Origin: Eubacteriales bacterium
Lineage (GTDB): Bacteria; Bacillota; Clostridia; Oscillospirales; CAG-382
Length of the DNA stretch: 64,000 bases
Direction of reading: 5' to 3'
Assembly (NCBI GenBank): GCA_045538555.1
Contig: JAZSRP010000049.1
Span: 129,476 to 193,475, forward strand
This document shows, piece by piece, positions 7,996 to 43,902 of the stretch. Both the position numbers and the translations under genes were made by a program. Numbering within the stretch: position 1 is the first letter of the stretch; each line of letters starts with the position of its first letter. A model generated the notes under the pieces. The model was not told where the DNA came from, searched no databases, and saw nothing but the letters and a program-made list of their open reading frames with translations.

Positions 7996-9117
7996 ATGGA
8001 CTCTGTGCGCAAGATATTGCCCAAGGATGAGCAGTGCGTTCTCGGTTTGCGGGAGCTGTACGAATCATACGGATATAAAAAATACAAGATGAGCAGGTTT
8101 GAGGAATACGACCTCTATCTTGAGAACAAAAATTTTTTGAAAAACACAGGTATTGCGACTGTAACTGACCCCAAGGGACGCCTGCTGGCACTCAAACCGG
8201 ATATTACGCTCTCTATTGTACGCAACATAAACGGTTCATCTCTGCCTCAAAAGGTGTATTATAACGAAAACGTATACACTGCCGACGGAGAGTCGGGGGA
8301 TATACGAGAAGTTACACAGGTGGGGCTTGAGTATATCGGTGAGCTTGATACCCGTGCGCTGGGCGAGGTATTGCTTCTTGCCGCCAAAGGGCTTGGTGCA
8401 ATTGATACAGAGTATTGTATTGCGTTGTCACATATGGGGTTTGTCTCCGAGGTGCTCTCCTCCACGGGACTTAATCCAAGAGCAAAGAGCAGGGTTCTTG
8501 ACTTGATCGGCTCAAAAAACCTGCATGGCATAAAAGAGCTTGCTGTCTCAAACTCTCTGTCGGAGTCAAATACAGCCAAGCTTTGTGCCCTCGTTACAAT
8601 TGACGGACGTATTGATCAGGCGCTTTTGCGTGCGTTTGAGATATTTGGGAAAGAAAATGTCTCTCTGTGCGAGCTTCAGACAATTTGCCGTCTTATTGAG
8701 AGCTTTGGGCTTTGTGACAGATTTATTCTTGATTTTTCTGTTATCAATGATATGAAATATTACAACGGTCTTGTGTTTCAAGGATTTGTCAGCCGTGTTC
8801 CCAGCAGTGTTATGTCCGGTGGCAGATATGACAAGCTTGTTCAGCTGTTTGGCAAGAATACGTCGGCAATTGGATTTGCAGTGGAGATGGATCACCTGTA
8901 TGAATATCATTACAGCGAGCAGGGGTACGACTGCGATGTACTGTTGAAATACACCGCTTCTGCTGATCCGGTGGTATTGCTCAAAGCGCAGGATGCACTT
9001 ACCTCACAGGGGCTTTCTGTGATTGCAGTGAGCGAGAACGAACAAAATGATTTCAGATACCGTCGTTTGGCGATATTGGACTCCTTTGGAGAAATAAAAT
9101 ATGAATCAGACAATTAA
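7996..9117 (+). CDS. hisZ: ATP phosphoribosyltransferase regulatory subunit (HisRS paralogue)
   Basis: 373 aa HisRS-like sequence without an anticodon-binding domain, directly upstream of and overlapping a short-form hisG. RBS GGAGG. Confidence 0.85.
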   Translation: MDSVRKILPKDEQCVLGLRELYESYGYKKYKMSRFEEYDLYLENKNFLKNTGIATVTDPKGRLLALKPDITLSIVRNINGSSLPQKVYYNENVYTADGESGDIREVTQVGLEYIGELDTRALGEVLLLAAKGLGAIDTEYCIALSHMGFVSEVLSSTGLNPRAKSRVLDLIGSKNLHGIKELAVSNSLSESNTAKLCALVTIDGRIDQALLRAFEIFGKENVSLCELQTICRLIESFGLCDRFILDFSVINDMKYYNGLVFQGFVSRVPSSVMSGGRYDKLVQLFGKNTSAIGFAVEMDHLYEYHYSEQGYDCDVLLKYTASADPVVLLKAQDALTSQGLSVIAVSENEQNDFRYRRLAILDSFGEIKYESDN

Positions 9118-9742
9118 CATTGCCCTTCCAAAAGGAAGATTGGGCGAGAAGGTATATTCAATATTTGAACAGCTTGGGTACGGTGTACCCGAAATGCGTG
9201 AGAACAACCGAAAACTTCTGTTTGGAGGCGAGGAATACGGGGTTTGCTATTTTTGGGCAAAGCCCTCTGACGTTTCCATCTATGTGGAGAGGGGAGCGGC
9301 TGATATCGGTGTGGTAGGCAAGGACATTTTGCTGGAGCACGAACCGGATGTGTATGAGCTGTTTGATCTCGGAATCGGAAAATGCCGTATGTGCGTTGCC
9401 GGCATCAAGGGTGCGAGAATACCCACTGACAGGATACTTCGTGTTGCCACAAAGTTTCCCAACATTGCACGTGGATATTATGCTTCTCAATCGAGAGATA
9501 TTGATATCATAAAGCTAAACGGTTCCATAGAGATCGCACCTCTTCTGGGACTGTCAGACGTGATCGTTGATATTGTTGAGACCGGCACAACGCTGAAGGA
9601 AAATAATCTTGAGCCGTTTGTGGATATCGTCAATATCAGTGCCCGTCTGATTGCCAACAAAGCAAGCTACAAATTCAAGACAGAGGGCATCAACAAGCTG
9701 CTTGCTCTGACCCAAAAGTTTGTAATGGAGAATAAAAAATGA
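9101..9742 (+). CDS. hisG: ATP phosphoribosyltransferase (short form)
   Basis: 213 aa; IALPKGRL, VDIVETGTTLKEN motifs. Confidence 0.9.
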   Translation: MNQTINIALPKGRLGEKVYSIFEQLGYGVPEMRENNRKLLFGGEEYGVCYFWAKPSDVSIYVERGAADIGVVGKDILLEHEPDVYELFDLGIGKCRMCVAGIKGARIPTDRILRVATKFPNIARGYYASQSRDIDIIKLNGSIEIAPLLGLSDVIVDIVETGTTLKENNLEPFVDIVNISARLIANKASYKFKTEGINKLLALTQKFVMENKK

Positions 9743-11007
9743 TAAAGATCCTGAAAAACGCATCCGACAGTGAAATATTGCTTCGCAGTCAAGAGAGCTT
9801 TAATGTATCTGATGGCGTGCGTGATATCATTGCTACTGTTCGCAGAGACGGGGACAAAGCATTGAGAGAGTATTCAAAAAAATTTGACGGCTGTGAGCCC
9901 GCCTCTTTTGAGATAGATTCCTCACTTTTGGAGCAGGCATATCTCAGTACCGGTCCGGATTTTCGCAATGTACTTGATTCAGCTGCGGCAAATATTCGTG
10001 AATATCACGAAAAAATGAAGCAGGAGGGTTTTGAGATTACACGTCCCAACGGTGTTGTAGTCGGTCAGCGTGTTCTTCCTCTTGCGCGTGTGGGATTGTA
10101 TATTCCCGGCGGCACTGCCGCATATCCCTCCTCGGTTTTGATGAACTGCATTCCTGCCAAAATTGCGGGAGTGGGTGAGATCATCATGACCACTCCTCCA
10201 AAAAAAGACGGAACGGTAGGATCAGATATTCTTGCGGCGGCATACGTTGCCGGCGTTGACCGTGTGTTCTGTATAGGCGGTGCACAGGCAGTGGCGGCAC
10301 TTGCTTTTGGAACAGAGACGGTTCCAAAGGTTGACAAGATCGTGGGTCCCGGAAATGCTTTTGTTGCGGAAGCAAAAAAACAGGTCTACGGTATCGTGGA
10401 TATCGATATGATTGCAGGCCCCAGTGAGATACTGATCGTAGCGGACGGTGACAGCAACCCCGCATACGTAGCGGCAGACATGCTGTCACAGGCAGAGCAC
10501 GACAAAAACGCATCTGCTGTGTTGATCACTGAGTCGGAGACGTTGGCTCAGGCAGTTTCTTTGGAGCTTGAAAAACAACTCTCTCTGCTTCCCAGAGAAG
10601 AGATCGCAAGAGCATCTATTGACAACAACGGAAAGATCATACTTGTTTCGGATATAAAAACAGCTATTGAGATTGCAAACAGACTTGCACCCGAGCACCT
10701 TGAACTCTGTACGGACAACAGCTTTGAGCTGCTTCCGCTGGTCAAAAATGCGGGATCGGTATTCCTGGGTAGATATTGCCCCGAGGCGGTTGGCGACTAT
10801 TATTCAGGAACAAACCACACCTTGCCGACAGGTGGGACAGCCAGGTTTTCCGGCGCATTGTCTGTTGACGATTTTGTGAAAAAGACACAGTATACGTATT
10901 ATACCCGTGATGCACTGCTTGAGGATGCAGACAGCATCGCTCTGTTTGCTTCACGAGAGGGACTTGATGCCCACGGCAGAAGTGTTATCATCAGAAAGGA
11001 AAACTGA
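9739..11007 (+). CDS. hisD: Histidinol dehydrogenase
   Basis: 422 aa; GGAQAVAALAFGTE, SQAEHD, PEHLEL, GDYxxGxNHxLPT motifs. Confidence 0.92.
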   Translation: MIKILKNASDSEILLRSQESFNVSDGVRDIIATVRRDGDKALREYSKKFDGCEPASFEIDSSLLEQAYLSTGPDFRNVLDSAAANIREYHEKMKQEGFEITRPNGVVVGQRVLPLARVGLYIPGGTAAYPSSVLMNCIPAKIAGVGEIIMTTPPKKDGTVGSDILAAAYVAGVDRVFCIGGAQAVAALAFGTETVPKVDKIVGPGNAFVAEAKKQVYGIVDIDMIAGPSEILIVADGDSNPAYVAADMLSQAEHDKNASAVLITESETLAQAVSLELEKQLSLLPREEIARASIDNNGKIILVSDIKTAIEIANRLAPEHLELCTDNSFELLPLVKNAGSVFLGRYCPEAVGDYYSGTNHTLPTGGTARFSGALSVDDFVKKTQYTYYTRDALLEDADSIALFASREGLDAHGRSVIIRKEN

Positions 11008-11008
11008 T

Positions 11009-12076
11009 ATGAGCAGGTTTTTGAGTAAATCGCTTTCCCGCTTTGATGCCTATGTTCCGGGCGAACAACCCAAAAACAAAAATCTCATAAAGCTCAATAC
11101 AAACGAGTCCTCATACCCGCCTTCAAAAAAGGTGGCTGAGTATCTTTCAAGAGAGGCGTGTGACGGTCTCAACCGTTATCCCGACCTTGTTTGCAGCGGC
11201 CTGCGTGACAGCTTTTGCAGAGTGTTTGGAGTGTCTGGAAACAAAGTTATGTTTACCAACGGTTCAGATGAGGCACTCTATCTTTCGTTCCTTACATTTT
11301 GTGACGAAAGCAGGGGAGTTGCTTTCCCTGATATAACTTATGGCTTTTATACCGTTTATGCCGACCTGTGCGGAATCAATAAAAAAATCATCCCGCTGGA
11401 TGATGAACTTAGGGTCAACCCAAGCAATTATGTAAACCTTGGCAGAACTATAGTTATTGCAAATCCAAACGCTCCCACAGGCCATGCTTTGTCTTTGGAC
11501 GAAATATCGTTTATACTTGACTCAAACAAGGACAACGTGGTGGTCATTGACGAGGCGTATGTTGATTTTTACGGAGTTTCCTGCAAGTCCCTGCTTGACA
11601 GGTACCAAAACCTTGTGGTGATCGGAACTTTTTCAAAATCCCGTTATCTTGCAGGTGCTCGGCTCGGCTACGTGATTGCATCACCTGAGCTTATTGCAGA
11701 CCTTGAAAAAGCCAAGTATTCCATCAACCCGTACAACGTAAACACCATGACCCAGCTTGCGGGCAAAGCGGCTCTTGATGATAACGAGTATTACATGCGT
11801 GTCAACGCCGAGATTGTCAAAACCCGTGATCTGTTTGCATCCGAGCTTTTGCAGATGGGGTTTGAAGTTCTTCCGTCAGCAACAAATTTTGTATTTGCAA
11901 AATATGACGGTTTTTCCGGTGAGTACCTGCTGGAATCTCTCAGGACAAGAGACATACTTGTACGCAGATTCAAAAATGAGAGAATAAAGGATTTTGTCCG
12001 CATCACAATCGGCACACCTCAGCAGATGAGAATTGTTGCCGACACCCTGCGTGAAATTGTGGGAGGTAAAAAATGA
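11009..12076 (+). CDS. hisC: Histidinol-phosphate aminotransferase
   Basis: The ATG at 11009 gives MSRFLSKSL...; KLNTNESSYPPS and TFSKSRYLAGARLGY (PLP lysine) motifs. The track ORF start at 10907 lies inside hisD. Confidence 0.9.
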   Translation: MSRFLSKSLSRFDAYVPGEQPKNKNLIKLNTNESSYPPSKKVAEYLSREACDGLNRYPDLVCSGLRDSFCRVFGVSGNKVMFTNGSDEALYLSFLTFCDESRGVAFPDITYGFYTVYADLCGINKKIIPLDDELRVNPSNYVNLGRTIVIANPNAPTGHALSLDEISFILDSNKDNVVVIDEAYVDFYGVSCKSLLDRYQNLVVIGTFSKSRYLAGARLGYVIASPELIADLEKAKYSINPYNVNTMTQLAGKAALDDNEYYMRVNAEIVKTRDLFASELLQMGFEVLPSATNFVFAKYDGFSGEYLLESLRTRDILVRRFKNERIKDFVRITIGTPQQMRIVADTLREIVGGKK

Positions 12077-31311: not shown

Positions 31312-31781
31312 TTTTTTGTTCCTTTCGGTCTTTGCCTGAGAATATGAAAAAAATCCTGCAAAACACGGACGCACTCTTCCTCAAGTACACCGCCTTTTAC
31401 TTCAAATTTGTGATTCAATGGGTATTGGGACAGATCAAAAACGCTTCCCAAAGCGCCCGCCTTTTGGTCTCTGCATCCAAAAACGACACTCTTGATACGT
31501 GAGTTGACAACAGCACCTGCACACATAGGACAGGGCTCCATGGTGACGTAGAGTGTGCAGTCCGACAGCCGCCAAGCTCCCAGCTTTTTGCAAGCGCGTT
31601 GAATTGCAACAGTCTCTGCGTGGAGCAGAGCGTTTTTTGATTTTTCACGCATGTTGCGTCCCGATGCAATGATGCATCCGTCTTTTACGATAACCGCTCC
31701 GATTGGAACCTCTCCCGCTCTTGCGGCGGCACGTGCCCGTACCAGGGCTTTTTTCATAAAAAATACGTCGTCTTTTGTCAT
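31308..31781 (-). CDS. tadA: tRNA adenosine(34) deaminase
   Basis: HAE...PCPMCAGA CDA zinc motifs; 157 aa. Confidence 0.9.
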   Translation of the reverse strand: MTKDDVFFMKKALVRARAAARAGEVPIGAVIVKDGCIIASGRNMREKSKNALLHAETVAIQRACKKLGAWRLSDCTLYVTMEPCPMCAGAVVNSRIKSVVFGCRDQKAGALGSVFDLSQYPLNHKFEVKGGVLEEECVRVLQDFFHILRQRPKGTKK

Positions 31782-32764
31782 ATCAGATATTGCAACCCCA
31801 AAGTTGCTCCCAGCATGATCAGGAAAAATATGGTGCCGGGGTTGAAAATAATTCTCTTTACTGCCTGCGTTGCGGTCACCAAGTAGCCGATCGCTTCGCC
31901 GCTGCGTCTCACAATACGTTTTCTTTCAAGCCCTCCGATGATATAGCAGACAACGGCAACCACTGAGATAACGATAAGAGCGCTGACTGCCAGCCCAAAA
32001 TAAATGGATGCCTCCTCCATCTCAAAAACCAGAATATATGATGCAGCAACAGAAAAAGCGTTGTTGATAAAATGAATCACGCTTCCCAAAAAAACTCTGC
32101 CCGTGCAGCAAAAGAGAATCCCGAGACATAGCCCAAAAACGGTTGCACCCGGCATTTTTGGAATATCTGTGTGCAAAGTACCAAAAAGCAGGGCAGACAC
32201 AATAATTGCGGGCCACTTGCCATAGGGGAGCAGGTTTTTGAGAATAATGCCCCGAAAAAGCCATTCCTCAAAAATTGCGGGAAGCAGTGCCACACTGACA
32301 AAGGTCAAAATAATCCCGCCTACTGATTGAGGTAGTGGAATTTCTGCCAAGGGCTGTTCCTCCAAAAGCTCCGAAAAAACCGCAGAGGAGATCAGTGCTA
32401 TGGCGTATGACAGACCCACCGTTCCAAAAACGTACAGGAGAGGAAACCGAGGTGCGGGTCTGAAATCGATCCTCGGCTTTTTGGGGTTGTTGCGAAACAT
32501 CATCAGAGCGATGGCGATGATGATTGAAAACATGAGGGTGTACGCAATCAGTTGGTATACGCCCATGGGCATTGCCGCTTTGTGATCGGCACCGATATTT
32601 TCGCAGATTAACTGAAAAACGGGATATCCAAAAAAGGATACGAGAATCTGGATCAGCAAAAAAATCCCGCAAACAGCAGCAGCGCGTGAAACGTTTTTTG
32701 AAAAACCCTTTTGCGTATGGATTTTTATATCATTTTCGGCAGGACATATAGTTGTCAAGTTCAT
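31778..32764 (-). CDS. CPBP (CAAX/Abi) family intramembrane glutamic endopeptidase
   Basis: Polytopic protein with EEWLFRG, FGTLH and HFINN motifs. Confidence 0.8.
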   Translation of the reverse strand: MNLTTICPAENDIKIHTQKGFSKNVSRAAAVCGIFLLIQILVSFFGYPVFQLICENIGADHKAAMPMGVYQLIAYTLMFSIIIAIALMMFRNNPKKPRIDFRPAPRFPLLYVFGTVGLSYAIALISSAVFSELLEEQPLAEIPLPQSVGGIILTFVSVALLPAIFEEWLFRGIILKNLLPYGKWPAIIVSALLFGTLHTDIPKMPGATVFGLCLGILFCCTGRVFLGSVIHFINNAFSVAASYILVFEMEEASIYFGLAVSALIVISVVAVVCYIIGGLERKRIVRRSGEAIGYLVTATQAVKRIIFNPGTIFFLIMLGATLGLQYLI

Positions 32765-33477
32765 TTTTTCTCCTGTGTGGCAGACGACATTGTTTCAAAG
32801 CAAAGCTTTGCAGCATCTGCGGAAATGTTGCATCCCAGAGACCACAACGGTATATTTGTCAGCATTTTTGATACAAGATCAAGAGTTGTGGCGGCAATTA
32901 GAGGATCCTTTGGAATGAGTATTTGATGCACCACACGCTCCAGAGCTGTTTTTGGGATCAACCGAGTTATTGTGTTCTCAGGTGACTGGTGCAAAAAGCA
33001 GATTCCGCCGAGAGGAGCGCTTGTGTTTGTGTTCATCATTTCTTTTCCCGCCCAAGGGGTGCCAAACGCATACAAAACTCCGTCCAAAAATCTCAATATC
33101 GGCTTGTCTCCATTGACAACAGTCATCCTGTTGCCCAACAACTCATGCCAAAGGCGGGTATGAGTAGTCTTGCCGGTTCCGCTCTTTGCGGAAAAAGCAT
33201 ATGCCACCCCGTCAACAGCCACCACCGAAGCATGCATAAGAAAAGCGTTGTAGGAGGGAAGCTTGAGTGCGATCTCACGGTATATGCAGACGCTCTCGAT
33301 GTATCCCATCTCCAGCTCAAAGTCATATAGCTTTTTTTCTTCGATCAGTTGCTGCCGAGTAACGCTGACGCAAAAATCCGGCTCCTCGTCCACTATGTAT
33401 CCGGAGCACTGTTTTTTTACGTATTCGTATGTATTGTTGATACCGATACGGATATCTGCTATTTTTATTACAAACAT
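32761..33477 (-). CDS. HPr-kinase-like P-loop protein (HprK C-terminal domain-like)
   Basis: HASVVAVDGVAYAFSAKSGTGKTTH resembles the HprK-type P-loop context (..G.a.l..G.SG.GKS). 238 aa. Its stop overlaps the CPBP start by 4 nt. Confidence 0.5.
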   Translation of the reverse strand: MFVIKIADIRIGINNTYEYVKKQCSGYIVDEEPDFCVSVTRQQLIEEKKLYDFELEMGYIESVCIYREIALKLPSYNAFLMHASVVAVDGVAYAFSAKSGTGKTTHTRLWHELLGNRMTVVNGDKPILRFLDGVLYAFGTPWAGKEMMNTNTSAPLGGICFLHQSPENTITRLIPKTALERVVHQILIPKDPLIAATTLDLVSKMLTNIPLWSLGCNISADAAKLCFETMSSATQEKK

Positions 33478-36262: not shown

Positions 36263-37264
36263 TCATTCTTTTGTGGTGGGGGAGAGCGCTTGGCAGATCT
36301 GCTCCAAAACCTTGCCCTCCGATGCAAAAATATTTTGATATTTGTCCAAAAACATCTCGTATCCGTACGGAAATTCCGCACTGTCAAGCCGCACTGTGAT
36401 GGGGTGCAGATCTCTGCGCCTGATTGCTCCGTTTATCTCGTCCTCCACACGCTCGGATGCAGCGGAATGCTCGGACGAAAAGAGCAAAAAGTTTTTGCAT
36501 CCTTTTATTCTTTCGCCCAGCATAATGAGCCAGTTGTTTCCTTTGTGGATCCCCTCATCGTACCAGACTCTGTATCCTTCTCTCTGCAGTGCTGAGAGAT
36601 ATGGAATCACCTTTTTGTCGTCCTTGTGGGAGTAGCTGACAAAAACGTAGTCAAGAGTACCTGTGTAAGGAAGATCCACGTACAGACGGTTGTTGAGCCG
36701 CTTTTGCAGCTCCTCCGCTTCCTTGATGATAAGGTCAAACTGGCTGTAAAGAGCGTCAAACCCAAATTCTCCGCCTTCGCTATATATAACAGTTTTGTCA
36801 AAAACATTCATGTTTGCAAGAAACGTGCTTCTCAGCATGGCTCCTTTTTTCAGACGTTTATTTACCTGAATTTCGTCTTTTACGTATTTGCGTGTCATTG
36901 TTTCAAGACTTGTGCTGTCAATGTACATATATATGGGCACCACGTATTCGCCAAAGGAATCCACAATCTCCCGCACAAAATCCAGACTGTCTGGGGACAT
37001 GGTGATAAGTGCGTTTGACCTGCCTCTCACCGCATCAAGGATCTGGGATTTGTAAAAACCCGTTTTTCCGCCGTGGATGGAATAAACAAAATCGCATTGC
37101 ATCACGGTTTTTTCGTCATGGTTTTTGTAGGTGTCATAGTGATACGACAGAGAATCCTCCGGGAGATAATTGTATTTTTGAATCACAGAGTAACCTTTGT
37201 TGGAAAAATACTCTCTTGATTTCTTTGCAACCTCAAGGGTTCCGCCCACCAAAACTATCAGCAT
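36263..37264 (-). CDS. TIR domain protein with degenerate guanylate-kinase-like N-terminal domain
   Basis: The C-terminal TIR (approx 36338-36652) has DYVFVSYSHKDD..., GYRVWYDEG, FLLFSS, SERVEDEI. The start is set to the ATG at 37264 (GAGG RBS 9 nt upstream) because an extended -10 (TGGTATGAT) abuts the track start at 37297. Confidence 0.8.
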   Translation of the reverse strand: MLIVLVGGTLEVAKKSREYFSNKGYSVIQKYNYLPEDSLSYHYDTYKNHDEKTVMQCDFVYSIHGGKTGFYKSQILDAVRGRSNALITMSPDSLDFVREIVDSFGEYVVPIYMYIDSTSLETMTRKYVKDEIQVNKRLKKGAMLRSTFLANMNVFDKTVIYSEGGEFGFDALYSQFDLIIKEAEELQKRLNNRLYVDLPYTGTLDYVFVSYSHKDDKKVIPYLSALQREGYRVWYDEGIHKGNNWLIMLGERIKGCKNFLLFSSEHSAASERVEDEINGAIRRRDLHPITVRLDSAEFPYGYEMFLDKYQNIFASEGKVLEQICQALSPTTKE

Positions 37265-37297
37265 ATCAAAAAACCTCGCAAATTTTATGATAAACAT

Positions 37298-37326
37298 ATC
37301 ATACCATGTTCGTTAAAAAAAAGCAA
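37298..37326 (-). promoter_or_regulatory. Promoter of the TIR gene
   Basis: On the minus strand: TTGCTT (37321-37326), 17 nt, TATGAT (37298-37303) preceded by TGn. Confidence 0.5.
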
Positions 37327-37342
37327 ACCAAAATACAATTCA

Positions 37343-37371
37343 TTGACGAAAACATAAAATGAGTGTATAAT
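37343..37371 (+). promoter_or_regulatory. Promoter of the STAND gene
   Basis: TTGACG (37343-37348), 17 nt, TATAAT (37366-37371). It sits back-to-back with the TIR promoter, with the -35 boxes 16 bp apart. Confidence 0.55.
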
Positions 37372-37409
37372 TCAAAAGAAAAAGAATTTTGTGAAAAAAG
37401 GGCGAAAAA

Positions 37410-40400
37410 ATGAATAATCCCGAGAATCAAAAGTACAACGGAATACGAATGTTTATATCCTCTACCTTTTCGGATATGACCTCTGAACGCCAGCATTTCA
37501 ACGATATAATCGTACCAAAGCTGAGGGCCCTTTGCCGTGACAAGGGAGTTTCGTTTTTTTCTGTGGATCTGCGCTGGGGTGTAACAGAAGAGGATATCGA
37601 AAACGACCGCCTTGTGTCTCTGTGCCTTGAGGAGGTAGACAGGTGCAGACCGTTCTTTTTGGGCATAATCGGCAATCGTTACGGATCACGAATGACACAG
37701 GTGTCTCCTGCGCTTGCGGAGCAATATCCCTGGCTTGCAGACAGTCTCGGTGCCAGCTACACCGAGCTTGAGATACTGTACAATCTGTCCAAAAACGACG
37801 GTCACAAAAATTCACTGTTTCTTTTCAAAAATTGCACTGAGCCCCCCTCTGCTGAGGATACACATAGCATTGCACAGCTCAAAGAAAAAATACTGAAAAC
37901 CGCCAAGGATGAAGTGGCGGAGTACAGTGAGATCTCCGAGTTTGAGTATATTATAGTTTCCCGTTTTTCGACTTGGCTTGATGAGATTTATGGTGATACG
38001 GACGTTCATCTTGAGCGAGAAAAGCTCTTTTCACACAGCATTTCGCTTCATTTTGACTGCAACGAAAAAGAGGTAAAAAGCATTTCATCGTGTATACGTA
38101 TGACCGATTCCACACTGATTCTGCACGGAAACGGGCCTCTGGGAAAAACGTCCCTGCTCAACAGAGTTGCTGCGGAGTTCCCCGCAAGAATCGTCATCAA
38201 CTGTCGTGCGGATGAGTCCAACACGGAGTGGCATTACGTTGCGTTTTCCATTGTAAAAAAACTGATGGAGCATCCGGACGTCACAGTTTATGATTATTCC
38301 TGGTTTGAAGAAAACAGCCATCTTTGGGACAGCGGCCGCATTTTGACAGACATTGAGGAGGAGGCGCTGAATCAAAATTTTGTAAATCTGATCAAAGAGC
38401 TTCACTGCCGGCAAGAGACACTGCTTGTCATCAATGATATTGAATATATCCACGGAAGCCGTACAAAATACCTTCAGTGGATACCCCCTGTCACGGGAAA
38501 TAAATTCCGTATTGTGTGTTCTTCCAACGATGCCGATATTATAAACAGTGCGGAGATCATGGGGTGGCAGTGTCTTGAGATGCGGCAAATGGAAATATCT
38601 TCAGCCCGCCATATTTTGGAATCGGAGCTGAAGAAGTACGGAAAAAACTCAAAAGACGTTTTGCCGCTGCTGGATTCTGACCTTGCCGGATATCCGGGAT
38701 ATCTCATCTCGGCAATCGATTTTCTCAACTGCTTCGGCAGCTTTGATACGGTAGGTGAGATATCAAAAAAGCTGTCGGAGTGCAGTACTTTTACGGAGTA
38801 TTATGACCTGGTTTTTGATTACATAAAAAGTACGCACGGGAAAGAATTTTTTGATCTTTTGCTTACTGTTTTGGCGGCGGTTTCAATCTCGGTGCTTCCG
38901 TTGGAGGAATCGGGCAGATTCTTTGTGCTGACTGACCTGACAAGCTGCGACAAGTTCCAATGGACAGCCGTCAGCCGTTTGATGAGCGCTTTGCGCTTTG
39001 AAACAATCGGCGGAGTTCTTCCCACGGCGTTGCGAGATCATGTCCTGCAGGTGGTGCTGCAATCAAAAAAAGATGAGATCAACATTTCATTGGGCAGATA
39101 CTTTTTGTCTGTTTCCGACTACAAAAAGATCGGAACCGATGCCCGTGATCTGAGACTTCAAAAAAATGCATTGATCCATTTTGTTGCCGGCAGAGATGAA
39201 AATTCGGTTTCGGCAGTGCTCGGAAATACCGATGTGATGATGAACCTTTGCGCTTATGAAAAGGATGCTGTAAGAGCGGCTCTGGCATTTTTGATGCTTG
39301 AAACCAACCGCAACGTATCAAAAATTATTGCTGACAACATGGAGTTCCTTGATCGAAACCATTCAGGGCTTCCCGTTCAGGCAAAGGACGCTTTTTGCAA
39401 TCTCGACGCCATATATATGGACCTTTCATTGCAAAAAGAAATTGATCGTATCAATCAAGTCATTGACTCCGCAGCTCAAAACAAATTTGTTCCTTTCCTG
39501 GAAATCGAAAGAGTTGGAAAAGAGATGTTTTTGGGCGAGGAGATAACCATCGCTGCGGAAGAGAATGGCACGGAATATGCTCTCAATCTGTTGGAAAAAT
39601 ATAGGTCAATGGAGGATGACACTCCCCTCAACCGAGCCATGTTTGCAAACCTTAGGTCCGAGCTGCTATGGAAACACAGACAGGTGGGATCAATGGCGGA
39701 TTTTGAAGATTCTATCCGTCTTTCCACTGAGGCGGGAAGCATCAGTTTTATATTGTTTGCATACAAACGAAAGATAGATTTGCTTATACGTGAAAAGGAG
39801 TATGGGGAGGCAGTCAATCTTTCTTCAAAATGTGAAAAATGGTCTCGCGATCTGGGCTACGTGTTTTTTACTCTCTCGTTCTCAAACAGCATTGCCGTGT
39901 GTCTTTACCGCACAGGAAATATCGATGAATCGTTGGAAATATCCAAAAAATACTACGATATTTGCAAAAAGCACGGGATCACCCAACATGCGTTTACGTT
40001 TCAGCGGGGTATTGCCAACGCCCTCAATATCGGAGGAAAATACAAAGAGTGCATCAAGTTTTGCGAGGATTTTTTGAAAAACAAAAACATTGAATTCTAT
40101 CAGGAAGTGGCAATCGTTGATGTTCTCAAAGGTGCGTATTGCAACGACAACAGACCGGAAAAAGCTATACCGCTGTTGACAAAAATGGTTGAGGATCCAC
40201 GTCTTGACGGATCAAAGAGAATGCTGTTTTCGTGTACACTGGCGAGTATTTTGATCGCTCGGCAGGGCTTTTCAAAAAAAGCAGAGGTGCTTCTCAACGA
40301 TACGTTTTCAATTGCCCAAAACAATCGCAACTTCAGGTTGATACATTTTTTGCTCAATCGTCTTTACAAGGATTTGTGGATATCAAAAGATGGGATTCGG

Positions 40401-41597
40401 TTTTGGAACCGTTGGAAAACCACGCCGGGATACAACGAGTTTCTCACAGACAGCGCAAGCTTTGATGACGAGCAGTTTTCCAACGGAGCTGATTTTTTTG
40501 CAGTAAACAATCTCTCGGTTGCAAAAGCAAATGTTCAAAAGCTGAAAAGCGATTATCGTATTGCATTTGAACGAAAAAAATATGCAGAATCCGCCGAGAT
40601 TGCATACCGTCTTGCTATTCTGACGGCAGAAAACGAGAGCAAAGAGTCGATAGGTATGATAGTGGATGCTTTGGAATCTGCCCGACTGAGCAATGATCCA
40701 AAAATGTTCCGAGAGTATTTGACCTATGGAATAAAGCGTCTCATGCACTGCGGAAAACCAACGGATGAGGAATTGGCAAATCTCCTTGACCTCTACCTTG
40801 ATCCCCAATGCAAGGCATTTTTGAAAAACTGGGAAAAAGCAGGTGAGTACCTGGAGGACATAGACAGTGAGCCGATGAACTGCCTTGTGAGTATAATAAC
40901 GGCAAAAGACGTTCCAAACGAGCTCAAACTTATCTGCCTTGCGGATCTGTCGACGCTTATCATTGGCTGCCTTTCTCCGGCTGAACTGAATGATTTGATC
41001 GATATCGCCTCGCAAGAGGGTTTGGAATCAAATTATCTAAACACGCTATTTGCTTCCAAAACGGTACAGGTTTTTGAGAAACATGATGCTGTGTACGGAG
41101 AGGATTCAGTAAACATAATGAAAAAAACGGAAAAAAGGTTTTTGTCATTCATTTCGTCATCGGGGCGGTTTGAAATTGTGGGAGGATTCGGCAGACAGGA
41201 AAATCCCATTGATCCGAACATGGTATCGGAGAGCTTTACCGTTGAGCCAAAATGCGATTACGATCACCTCGGCCGTGTTCTTGCCACTGTTGGTGTTGCG
41301 GAATCTGCATCAAATGAAAAAATCGATCTTTGGTGCATCACTGACATCGTATTTTCCACGTTGACTCCCGAGCTTATGCAACAGGTTTGGGAGCTGATCG
41401 GCAACACTCCTCTGCCTCAGTATCAGGGGAAAGATTTTTGCCATGTCAATATCCAGCCCAACGAGATGCTCAGATGCATGGGAATGATATCTCTGAACTC
41501 AAAATTGGAGCTTCCCATGGTGTATAGGCTGTATTCTGACCTTGCAATCGATCTGATCCAAAAAGCAGATGCACTGGCAAAAAATCTTGATGGCTGA
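37410..41597 (+). CDS. DUF4062 (TIR-like) / STAND P-loop NTPase / helical (TPR-like) repeat protein, 1395 aa
   Basis: aa 12-92 (37443-37685) FISSTFSDM..ERQ...VDLRWGVTEED...CLEEVDRCRPFFLGIIGNRYGS matches the DUF4062 signature. Walker A is GNGPLGKTS (38127-38153) and Walker B is LLVINDIE (38421-38444). More than 700 aa of helical repeats follow, then a ~230-aa non-repeat C-terminus. Confidence 0.85.
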   Translation: MNNPENQKYNGIRMFISSTFSDMTSERQHFNDIIVPKLRALCRDKGVSFFSVDLRWGVTEEDIENDRLVSLCLEEVDRCRPFFLGIIGNRYGSRMTQVSPALAEQYPWLADSLGASYTELEILYNLSKNDGHKNSLFLFKNCTEPPSAEDTHSIAQLKEKILKTAKDEVAEYSEISEFEYIIVSRFSTWLDEIYGDTDVHLEREKLFSHSISLHFDCNEKEVKSISSCIRMTDSTLILHGNGPLGKTSLLNRVAAEFPARIVINCRADESNTEWHYVAFSIVKKLMEHPDVTVYDYSWFEENSHLWDSGRILTDIEEEALNQNFVNLIKELHCRQETLLVINDIEYIHGSRTKYLQWIPPVTGNKFRIVCSSNDADIINSAEIMGWQCLEMRQMEISSARHILESELKKYGKNSKDVLPLLDSDLAGYPGYLISAIDFLNCFGSFDTVGEISKKLSECSTFTEYYDLVFDYIKSTHGKEFFDLLLTVLAAVSISVLPLEESGRFFVLTDLTSCDKFQWTAVSRLMSALRFETIGGVLPTALRDHVLQVVLQSKKDEINISLGRYFLSVSDYKKIGTDARDLRLQKNALIHFVAGRDENSVSAVLGNTDVMMNLCAYEKDAVRAALAFLMLETNRNVSKIIADNMEFLDRNHSGLPVQAKDAFCNLDAIYMDLSLQKEIDRINQVIDSAAQNKFVPFLEIERVGKEMFLGEEITIAAEENGTEYALNLLEKYRSMEDDTPLNRAMFANLRSELLWKHRQVGSMADFEDSIRLSTEAGSISFILFAYKRKIDLLIREKEYGEAVNLSSKCEKWSRDLGYVFFTLSFSNSIAVCLYRTGNIDESLEISKKYYDICKKHGITQHAFTFQRGIANALNIGGKYKECIKFCEDFLKNKNIEFYQEVAIVDVLKGAYCNDNRPEKAIPLLTKMVEDPRLDGSKRMLFSCTLASILIARQGFSKKAEVLLNDTFSIAQNNRNFRLIHFLLNRLYKDLWISKDGIRFWNRWKTTPGYNEFLTDSASFDDEQFSNGADFFAVNNLSVAKANVQKLKSDYRIAFERKKYAESAEIAYRLAILTAENESKESIGMIVDALESARLSNDPKMFREYLTYGIKRLMHCGKPTDEELANLLDLYLDPQCKAFLKNWEKAGEYLEDIDSEPMNCLVSIITAKDVPNELKLICLADLSTLIIGCLSPAELNDLIDIASQEGLESNYLNTLFASKTVQVFEKHDAVYGEDSVNIMKKTEKRFLSFISSSGRFEIVGGFGRQENPIDPNMVSESFTVEPKCDYDHLGRVLATVGVAESASNEKIDLWCITDIVFSTLTPELMQQVWELIGNTPLPQYQGKDFCHVNIQPNEMLRCMGMISLNSKLELPMVYRLYSDLAIDLIQKADALAKNLDG

Positions 41598-43342: not shown

Positions 43343-43792
43343 TTATATTTCCTTTGTGGCAAATCGGTAAAAAGAGACGACACTATCTTCGCTACCGTTG
43401 ACTAATCTTTTATAAACCTTATCATTTGGAGTGAGATAAGAACCATCGTCCTTAATCAATAAAGGTACATTCGATGAAGCTTCTTTTCCCCAAACAAAAC
43501 CTTTTTTCGTAAGCCCGTTTTTTAACAATGTTTCGCCTAAATATGAGCCGAATATAATTGCCATACTCCAAATCTGGTTTTCGGTAGGTTTAGAAATAGA
43601 AATATCTTTTGAATACCAATCTAATATTTCCTCCAAATATGTAATGCTGTTTTCAGAATAATCTAATTTTTTATTAAATTCATTTGCATATTCAATGGCG
43701 GAAACGCACATCTTTTGTGCATAAACTGCCCATTCGCCATTTGTGTTTTTAAGGTTTTGCTTTGGCTTTTTAAACATATCAAATAATCCCAT
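43343..43792 (-). CDS. Hypothetical cytoplasmic protein (AT-rich)
   Basis: RBS AGAGGTGG lies 5 nt before the ATG at 43792 (MGLFDMFKK...). 149 aa; family not recognised with confidence (possibly DUF3806-like). Confidence 0.6.
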   Translation of the reverse strand: MGLFDMFKKPKQNLKNTNGEWAVYAQKMCVSAIEYANEFNKKLDYSENSITYLEEILDWYSKDISISKPTENQIWSMAIIFGSYLGETLLKNGLTKKGFVWGKEASSNVPLLIKDDGSYLTPNDKVYKRLVNGSEDSVVSFYRFATKEI

Positions 43793-43902
43793 AAAACCAC
43801 CTCTTGGTTTTATTATAACAAAAAGGAATCCCATTTTCAACACCATACAAAAATCCGCCCGAAGAAATTCGGGCAGATAGTTTTGTTTTATAAAGTCAAC
43901 AA

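Follow-up and report, generated by a model that had tools for sequence, protein, structure and literature searches.

DUF4062 is now known to be a TIR-like NADase, which acts both in Swarozyc, a defence system of one gene, and in human TEP1 (Osinski et al., 10.64898/2026.05.01.722283); it has since been renamed NIR (Le Mouellic et al., 10.64898/2026.09.04.749371). PsAvs2 from Pseudomonas chlororaphis, a DUF4062-STAND-TPR protein, needs no second gene to protect E. coli, which it does through NAD+ depletion that depends on its catalytic Glu (10.64898/2026.09.04.749371); Evangelion and the "acidic-SYT" catalytic motif have also been described (Ibarra-Chavez et al., 10.64898/2026.06.25.731849). 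The catalytic Glu of this motif is E108 in PsAvs2, E97 in KpSwz, and E1008 in TEP1, where it is needed for NADase activity; the DUF4062 domains of NWD1, NWD2, and NPHP3 display no NADase activity in vitro. According to a published figure, known defence genes are found close to approximately 20% of bacterial NIR genes, compared to 3.9% expected by chance. Here, two divergently transcribed genes are compared with these systems; they lie in a 64,000-nucleotide stretch of contig JAZSRP010000049.1 (assembly GCA_045538555.1, positions 129,476 to 193,475) from an Eubacteriales bacterium of the Clostridia, which as a whole is referred to as the window. The plus-strand gene encodes a 1395 aa protein with a NIR domain, a STAND module, and a helical C-terminal region (the STAND protein); the minus-strand gene encodes a 333 aa protein in which a guanylate kinase (GK)-like domain precedes a TIR domain (GK-TIR). 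The two are probably independent, single-gene candidate anti-phage proteins placed back to back by chance, each of which is predicted to kill or arrest the infected cell through NAD+ destruction.

A preliminary description of the window, made from its sequence, had recognized immune-type domains in both proteins and no named system; this is upheld, as both carry NAD+-centred domains and neither matches a named PADLOC system. The same description had considered the pair to be a two-gene module, which is not borne out by the distribution of the two families (see below).

The STAND protein

The N-terminus of the STAND protein matches DUF4062 (PF13271) over residues 13-122 with an E-value of 1.7e-11 and 44.6 bits (Pfam cut-off 24.7), as had been proposed in the preliminary description. 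Residues 9-133 (window 37434-37808) match the crystal chain of the human TEP1 NIR domain, 11gz_A, by phmmer (E = 1.4e-19), with 36% identity over 124 positions and an exact DLRWGVTEE block. S116-Y-T-E-L-E121 aligns with the SVTEMEV of TEP1, placing E121 at chain position 115; this position is E1008, because the crystal construct spans residues 895-1113. E121 is conserved in 71/71 members of the STAND family, and the surrounding S-x-T-E-x-E motif is invariant or nearly so. In the structure model the strands of the NIR domain (residues 11-18, 48-52, 81-87, 135-140, and 169-172) alternate with helices; the Foldseek search of the 700-residue model was dominated by the STAND module and gave no direct superposition of the NIR domain on a TIR or NIR structure. 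The earlier view that the protein is without a classical effector is outdated, as DUF4062 is a NADase effector according to the three 2026 preprints. Dictyostelium TEP1-like proteins are also among the database matches of the NIR domain from the window, and judging by sequence this Clostridia NIR family may lie near the eukaryotic NIR clade.

The NIR domain is followed by a predicted STAND NTPase module, an identity that is established through the structure model only. The AlphaFold2 model covers residues 1-700, was built on 71 homologues, and has a predicted local distance difference test score (pLDDT) of 89.7 and a predicted template modelling score of 0.84; its Foldseek matches in the PDB include CED-4, 6mfv (an archaeal/bacterial STAND-TPR protein), Apaf-1, ZAR1, MalT, Avs3, NRC2, and NOD2, with E-values from 7e-8 to 1e-4. 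The STAND assignment of the preliminary description thus holds by structure but not by sequence, since AAA_16 reaches 22.3 bits against a Pfam cut-off of 32.6; a NACHT or NB-ARC match was likewise not found by Pfam. More distant family members carry NACHT or AAA_16, as well as clear TPR domains, in precomputed Pfam annotation. The Walker A motif GNGPLGKTS (residues 240-248) and the strand LLVINDIE (residues 338-345) are both present as first reported. G240 and K246 are each conserved in 70/71 homologues, G245 and T/S247 in 71/71; the Walker B-like strand features a hydrophobic run followed by N/D342 and D343 (Asp in 54/71). More than 700 residues of TPR-like repeats had been proposed for the remainder of the protein; residues 396-700 are all-helical in the model, and the profile evidence is limited to a sub-threshold TPR_12 match at residues 790-854 (E = 0.025), which makes the repeats weaker than first stated. 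No DNA-binding domain was found in the protein by Pfam, and NCBIfam returned no useful match for it or for GK-TIR. PADLOC models matched no family at E<=1 in the 1395 residues, including Avs1-5 of PADLOC-DB 2.0; classification of the protein as Avs1-5 was rejected for lack of such a match.

By analogy with PsAvs2, Swarozyc, and TEP1, the STAND protein would combine an effector (the N-terminal NIR NADase), a switch (the STAND ATPase), and a presumed sensor (the C-terminal helical region). The helical region would recognise a phage component and the STAND ATPase would oligomerise; the NIR domains would then hydrolyse NAD+, leading to abortive infection in which phage replication is stopped. Because DUF4062 is itself the effector, such a protein would need no partner.

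PsAvs2 and the STAND protein display the same order of parts in a single gene, with a NIR domain and its catalytic Glu first, a STAND NTPase in the centre, and a helical C-terminal region, the presumed sensor in the window protein, at the end, and the same logic of sensing, oligomerisation, and NAD+ depletion is predicted for the window protein. However, the latter has no PADLOC Avs match and comes from a gut Clostridia bacterium rather than a Proteobacterium; furthermore, its C-terminal region is unrelated or uncharacterised, and for this reason the Avs2 trigger (terminase) is not transferable to it. In TEP1/NWD1-type NIR-NACHT proteins DUF4062 also lies directly N-terminal to the STAND NTPase, and TEP1 has both DLRWGVTEE and S-x-T-E-x-E in common with the window protein; TEP1 differs in its TROVE and WD40 domains and in its presence in vault and telomerase particles, whereas the window protein is bacterial and carries putative helical repeats. 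Swarozyc, Evangelion, Vulcan, and Vesta (2026) have the NADase effector domain and the acidic-SYT/Glu motif in common with it; however, in these systems NIR is joined to a short auxiliary region, HEAT repeats, or a separate alkaline phosphatase without STAND, while the window protein contains a 330 aa STAND module and approximately 835 further residues. In the best reading, the STAND protein is a new representative of an already described class, that of NLR-like proteins with a NIR domain.

Relatives of the STAND protein fall into twelve clusters at 35-41% identity, ten of which are full length; the best non-self identity is 39% over the full length and 41-42% for two partial sequences. The five closest relatives with retrievable contigs (35-41% identity) are found in five unrelated contexts. 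At one locus (L081, 3003-9894), a relative with 36% identity directly follows WYL, AAA-ATPase, and faint Card1-endonuclease-like genes; this context is defence-island-like, unlike that of the window.

The GK-TIR protein

The ORF (open reading frame) of GK-TIR was called from its first ATG as 36263..37297, giving 344 aa; the true start is the second Met (M12 of the 344 aa form). A start at MLI.. is common to 35/35 aligned homologues and GAGG is found approximately 10 nt 5' of the M12 ATG, so the gene is assigned to 36263..37264 (333 aa); the NCBI-sourced database copy (P0121) is also 333 aa and starts MLIVLVGG....

The C-terminal TIR domain, seen in the preliminary description, is matched by TIR_2 with an E-value of 3.6e-17 and 63.4 bits (Pfam cut-off 28) and by ThsB_TIR with 25.9 bits, just over the cut-off of 21.2; PADLOC ThsB models also match, at E-values from 1e-5 to 1e-2 and confined to the TIR core. 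The family profile has its best PDB match in the SPARTA TIR-APAZ structure 8qlo, and further matches in AbTir, Cat1, and SARM1; by Foldseek against the PDB, the C-terminal part of the model resembles the TIR domains of SARM1, AbTir, and MyD88. E276 of the RVEDEI motif is invariant in 35/35 family members and is the putative catalytic Glu, by analogy with TIR NADases in general.

The N-terminal domain is assigned as guanylate kinase-like by its modelled fold alone. In the AlphaFold2 model, built on 35 homologues with a pLDDT of 86.7, the first ~195 residues retrieve guanylate kinases as all of the top 24 PDB matches in Foldseek (E-values 2e-6 to 7e-5, target template modelling (TM) scores 0.54-0.69); the "GK-like-TIR" label of the preliminary description is therefore correct, as Foldseek matches the N-terminus to guanylate kinases and the C-terminus to TIR. 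The protein thus presents a GMP-kinase fold (Foldseek E = 2e-6, target TM ~0.66), but it lacks the sequence features of the enzyme: Pfam returns no match in the domain, including none to Guanylate_kin, and alignment of the family profile with E. coli Gmk by hhalign gave a probability of 0.1% and no similarity. The P-loop is degenerate (MLIVLVGGTLEVAKKSR) and does not contain GxxGxGK[ST]; the family consensus, MLIILxGxTLxVGxxSR, also lacks GK[ST]. Conserved basic and aromatic residues of the domain are found among R17, K30, Y33, Y61, R137, and Q175. Loss of Walker A is common to the GK domains of MAGUK proteins, pseudo-kinase domains which have been turned into binding modules. The GK-like domain of GK-TIR, a pseudo-kinase with a lost P-loop, would most likely bind a ligand or a protein and serve in sensing or regulation; it may control oligomerisation of the TIR domain, which retains the catalytic Glu.

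GK-TIR resembles Thoeris ThsB, AbTir, SPARTA TIR-APAZ, and Cat1 in its ThsB_TIR and TIR_2 matches and its invariant Glu; it differs from them in that partners of the ThsA, Argonaute, or CRISPR kind are absent from its locus and not conserved at 26 homologous ones, and in that its GK-fold N-terminal domain is covered by no PADLOC model. The preliminary description had already remarked on the lack of a ThsA-type partner, and the neighbouring genes are indeed of the CotH family and for a helix-turn-helix (HTH) membrane protein; a classification as Thoeris was rejected for want of ThsA. No description of a fusion of guanylate kinase and TIR was found in PADLOC or in the searchable literature, where the only match was a mention of phage SLOG-GK fusions. 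GK-TIR, the only novel element at the locus, is a modest addition to a known theme, that of TIR proteins whose sensor domains vary.

The family is small. When 185,579 species were scanned, each through a single genome, 80 loci were returned; full-length GK-TIR is present at 25 of these, which extend up to 10 kb to either side of the gene. The GK-like domain alone, searched against 1.84 billion cluster representatives, was found in only 79 clusters (50% identity). Nearly all of the members sampled have TIR fused to this domain, in either a ~335 aa form or a ~720 aa GK-TIR-x-TIR form. In relatives of ~700-820 aa (P0202, P0203, P0217, P0235, and others) two TIR domains come after the GK-like domain, and three relatives of ~500 aa (P0229, P0233, and P0242) have no Pfam match after the GK-like part. 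The distribution is patchy: most hosts are Clostridia of the gut and rumen, and stray occurrences are seen in Eggerthellaceae, Desulfovibrionaceae, and Blautia. At least one cultured isolate, Ruminococcoides intestinale CLA-JM-H38 (L012), has the gene. The closest non-self relative has 70% identity. A metagenome-assembled genome (MAG) of Clostridia (L008) contains tandem GK-TIR paralogues (8990-9982 and 10001-10981), and in an Acutalibacteraceae MAG (L004) GK-TIR is divided between two ORFs (10001-10342 and 10370-11029), which is probably a pseudogene or a sequencing frameshift.

No recurrent partner of GK-TIR emerged when the ORFs of 25 genome loci were clustered all-vs-all, nor when 87 ORFs flanking the gene at 26 loci were surveyed with Pfam; the commonest families among these ORFs are TIR_2 (4), followed by HAD and VTT (3 each), and the remaining neighbours are mostly housekeeping genes (recA, ligA, prfA-type). 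Neither SIR2 nor SLOG recurs as a partner at the 26 loci, where one SIR2 and one Macro-ARH were each seen a single time. The closest relative, at 70% identity, lies on the same strand as, and after, a 237 aa ORF and a Macro-ADP-ribosylglycohydrolase fusion of 701 aa, the latter two genes upstream of GK-TIR (L164, 748-4657); at another locus (L165, 63-4793) an isochorismatase-family gene is situated between ppdK and GK-TIR, directly upstream of the latter. The isochorismatase family includes nicotinamidases. These neighbours of NAD/ADP-ribose-salvage type are suggestive, and do not recur across loci.

In the phage and plasmid collections no close relatives of either gene were found, and no sign of carriage by mobile elements; the matches there were one phage protein by its TIR domain only and two plasmid proteins by DUF4062 only.

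Co-occurrence of the two genes

The preliminary description had tied its proposal of a two-gene module to the conservation of both genes together in other genomes. With tblastn using the STAND protein, and a hidden Markov model (HMM) of the STAND family, applied to up to 10 kb around GK-TIR, no NIR-STAND relative was found at any of 27 loci (the 25 full-length species-representative loci and 2 further contigs, one of which carries the closest GK-TIR relative). The STAND matches among the 80 loci are otherwise limited to places beside or within TIR-only matches (L042 and L071); a weak match 2.5 kb from the GK-TIR of L012 (E = 3e-6) is probably repeat-driven. From the side of the STAND protein, an HMM of the GK domain found a GK-like ORF at 0/86 NIR-STAND loci, including the contigs of the five closest relatives, and no GK-like-domain match among 80 metagenome loci with more distant DUF4062-STAND genes. 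The two genes are not co-conserved at these loci, and the proposed module is therefore not supported.

The surroundings of ppdK agree with a separate history. At three loci (L006, L008, and L165) GK-TIR lies a few kb from ppdK as it does in the window, without a STAND gene; the interval is instead occupied by RHS-type fragments and small ORFs, by a second, tandem GK-TIR, or by an isochorismatase-family gene. As relatives carry other genes there, the interval from ppdK to the TIR gene is considered a variable spot, with the STAND gene as its content in this genome. The two proteins also differ strongly in divergence, with best non-self identities of 70% for GK-TIR and 39% over the full length for the STAND protein.

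Alternative explanations

Several points weigh against two independent NAD+-destroying defence proteins. A conserved Glu is no proof of activity, as the inactive NIR domains of NWD1, NWD2, and NPHP3 demonstrate; no PADLOC 2023 model matches the STAND protein, which is thus not a defined Avs type; and the mostly housekeeping neighbours and good conservation of GK-TIR are as compatible with a physiological role as with a defensive one. The absence of co-occurrence elsewhere is compatible with cross-talk between the two proteins in this one genome. Finally, in 7/84 DUF4062-STAND loci (L151, L152, L098, L125, L042, L133, and L130) another TIR-domain gene is directly adjacent, a frequency for which there is no baseline to compare. 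It is very improbable, nonetheless, that the pair is a two-gene system in which TIR and STAND are interdependent, for instance through activation of a separate TIR effector by the STAND sensor, or through a signal that TIR produces and STAND responds to. The seven adjacent TIR genes, the divergent arrangement across only 145 bp, and the NAD+-centred immune-type domains of both proteins would favour such a system; against it stand the lack of either gene at the loci of the other (0/27 and 0/86), the ppdK-linked GK-TIR loci that are without a STAND gene, the possession by the STAND protein of its own effector of a validated class, and the lack of a convincing shared operator. Moreover, the TIR genes adjacent to NIR-STAND genes are of unrelated architecture (TIR-only, ThsB-like, TIR-FGE-sulfatase, TIR-Macro, and SAM-TIR-NACHT-TPR); on this ground the idea of a generic system of TIR with NIR-STAND was set aside, and these adjacencies are read as immune-gene clustering, in islands or tandem NLR arrays, rather than as a defined system.

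If the two proteins are taken separately, the role of each can still be questioned. GK-TIR could be a physiological enzyme of NAD+/nucleotide metabolism or signalling, its GK-like domain sensing a guanine nucleotide or alarmone, with NIR-STAND alone being defensive; this division is unlikely, though it draws on the conservation of GK-TIR (as much as 70% identity between genera, and far better than in the STAND protein), its position near ppdK kept in several lineages, its mostly housekeeping neighbours, and the NAD/ADP-ribose-salvage-type genes at two loci (L165 and L164). However, a very patchy distribution (25 of ~185,000 species representatives; 79 clusters), a tandem duplication (L008), a split copy (L004), and additional TIR genes adjacent at 4 loci are typical of defence genes, and no neighbour is conserved across loci. 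A more specific proposal, which is tentative and somewhat doubtful, makes GK-TIR the first representative of a single-gene TIR system not described before; here the pseudo-kinase would sense a nucleotide-type ligand (phage-derived or an alarmone) and switch on a TIR NADase/cyclase, the ~720 aa GK-TIR-x-TIR proteins being elaborated forms. For the STAND protein, it is most improbable that it serves as a non-immune regulator or scaffold, MalT- or TEP1-like, with DUF4062 as a catalytically silent or interaction module. MalT is indeed among its structural matches, the domains of NWD1, NWD2, and NPHP3 are inactive in vitro, and the window contains no defence-gene neighbours; yet the protein has no DNA-binding domain, its S-x-T-E-x-E catalytic motif is invariant or nearly so, and its NIR domain has 36% identity with the active domain of TEP1. 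The fast sequence turnover and varied contexts of the family, one of them beside WYL, AAA, and Card1-like genes (L081), also speak against a non-immune role, as does the enrichment of bacterial NIR genes near defence genes.

Organization of the locus

The features of the two genes are collected in Table 1; the divergent arrangement across ~145 bp noted in the preliminary description is confirmed, and a terminator-like hairpin is present where a terminator had been placed there, after the TIR gene. The terminator-like hairpin comprises a 7-bp stem (6 GC) and an 8-nt loop followed by a T-run. In the spacer, a sigma-70-like site TTGACG-17-TATAAT (37343-37371, plus strand) precedes the STAND gene and agrees with the consensus at 11/12 positions, and a weaker promoter-like site (37316-37287, minus strand) agrees at 9/12; a shared operator was sought in the 145 bp and none was convincing, with only a weak, imperfect palindrome at 37277-37312.

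Table 1. Coordinates of the GK-TIR and NIR-STAND genes and their features in the window.
Feature	Position	Strand	Basis
GK-like-TIR gene, 333 aa + stop	36263..37264	-	ORF; start ATG at 37264, not 37297
NIR(DUF4062)-STAND-helical-repeat gene, 1395 aa + stop	37410..41597	+	ORF
Divergent intergenic region, 145 bp	37265..37409	.	Between the two gene starts
Terminator-like hairpin 3' of GK-TIR stop codon	36233..36254	-	Consensus match only
Guanylate-kinase-fold domain, aa 1-193	36686..37264	-	AlphaFold2 model and Foldseek
TIR domain, aa 204-333	36266..36655	-	Pfam TIR_2, profile and Foldseek matches
Codon of E276 (333 aa numbering), putative TIR catalytic Glu, second Glu of RVEDEI	36437..36439	-	Family alignment
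NIR/DUF4062 domain, putative TIR-like NADase, ~aa 9-195	37434..37994	+	Pfam, phmmer, model
Codon of E121, putative NIR catalytic Glu, in S116-Y-T-E-L-E121	37770..37772	+	Family and TEP1 alignment
Predicted STAND NTPase module, ~aa 232-560: nucleotide-binding domain, helical and winged-helix arms	38103..39089	+	AlphaFold2 model, Foldseek
Walker A G240-NGPL-G245-K246-T247	38127..38150	+	Family alignment
Walker B-like strand LLVIN-D343-IE, residues 338-345	38421..38444	+	Family alignment
Presumed sensor: helical (TPR-like) C-terminal region together with the C-terminal domain	39090..41594	+	Model to residue 700, weak TPR_12

The pair is flanked on one side by metG, a DUF711 gene, tadA, a CAAX protease gene, and the CotH gene, and on the other by the HTH membrane protein gene, a 167 aa ORF, ppdK, and a Mur ligase gene; the CotH-family and HTH membrane protein genes are its immediate neighbours. 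The preliminary description had placed the pair in a lower-GC accessory stretch, which is not the case: the GC contents of the GK-TIR and STAND genes are 0.448 and 0.444, close to the window mean of 0.454, and low values are confined to the two small genes that separate the STAND gene from ppdK (0.396 and 0.325). Nor is the setting in this genome that of a defence island, as PADLOC defence models gave no match among the flanking genes besides generic HTH matches and a TatD-family gene matching QatD.

Two groups of flanking ORFs display further features. The 167 aa ORF beside ppdK (window 43343-43846, minus strand) is the very GC-poor gene (0.325), and an N-terminal MGLFD(M/I)FKK motif is common to it and a 134 aa ORF at L008 (7555-7959, plus strand), which holds the equivalent position beside ppdK; neither the 167 aa ORF nor the neighbouring 335 aa HTH membrane protein received a specific defence-family assignment. 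A 238 aa ORF (window 32761-33477, minus strand) contains a P-loop-like SAKSGTGKTTH motif, with no Pfam or PADLOC match, and overlaps the CAAX/Rce1-like protease gene (31778-32764, minus strand) operon-style; the two lie upstream of the gene for an 859 aa CotH-kinase-domain protein, and together these genes may form a peptide-maturation or spore-coat-related cluster.

Significance

Neither result changes current concepts. The STAND protein could serve as a Gram-positive, anaerobe-derived comparator for work on Avs2 and TEP1; GK-TIR, should it prove to protect against phage, would extend the TIR repertoire by a new sensor domain.

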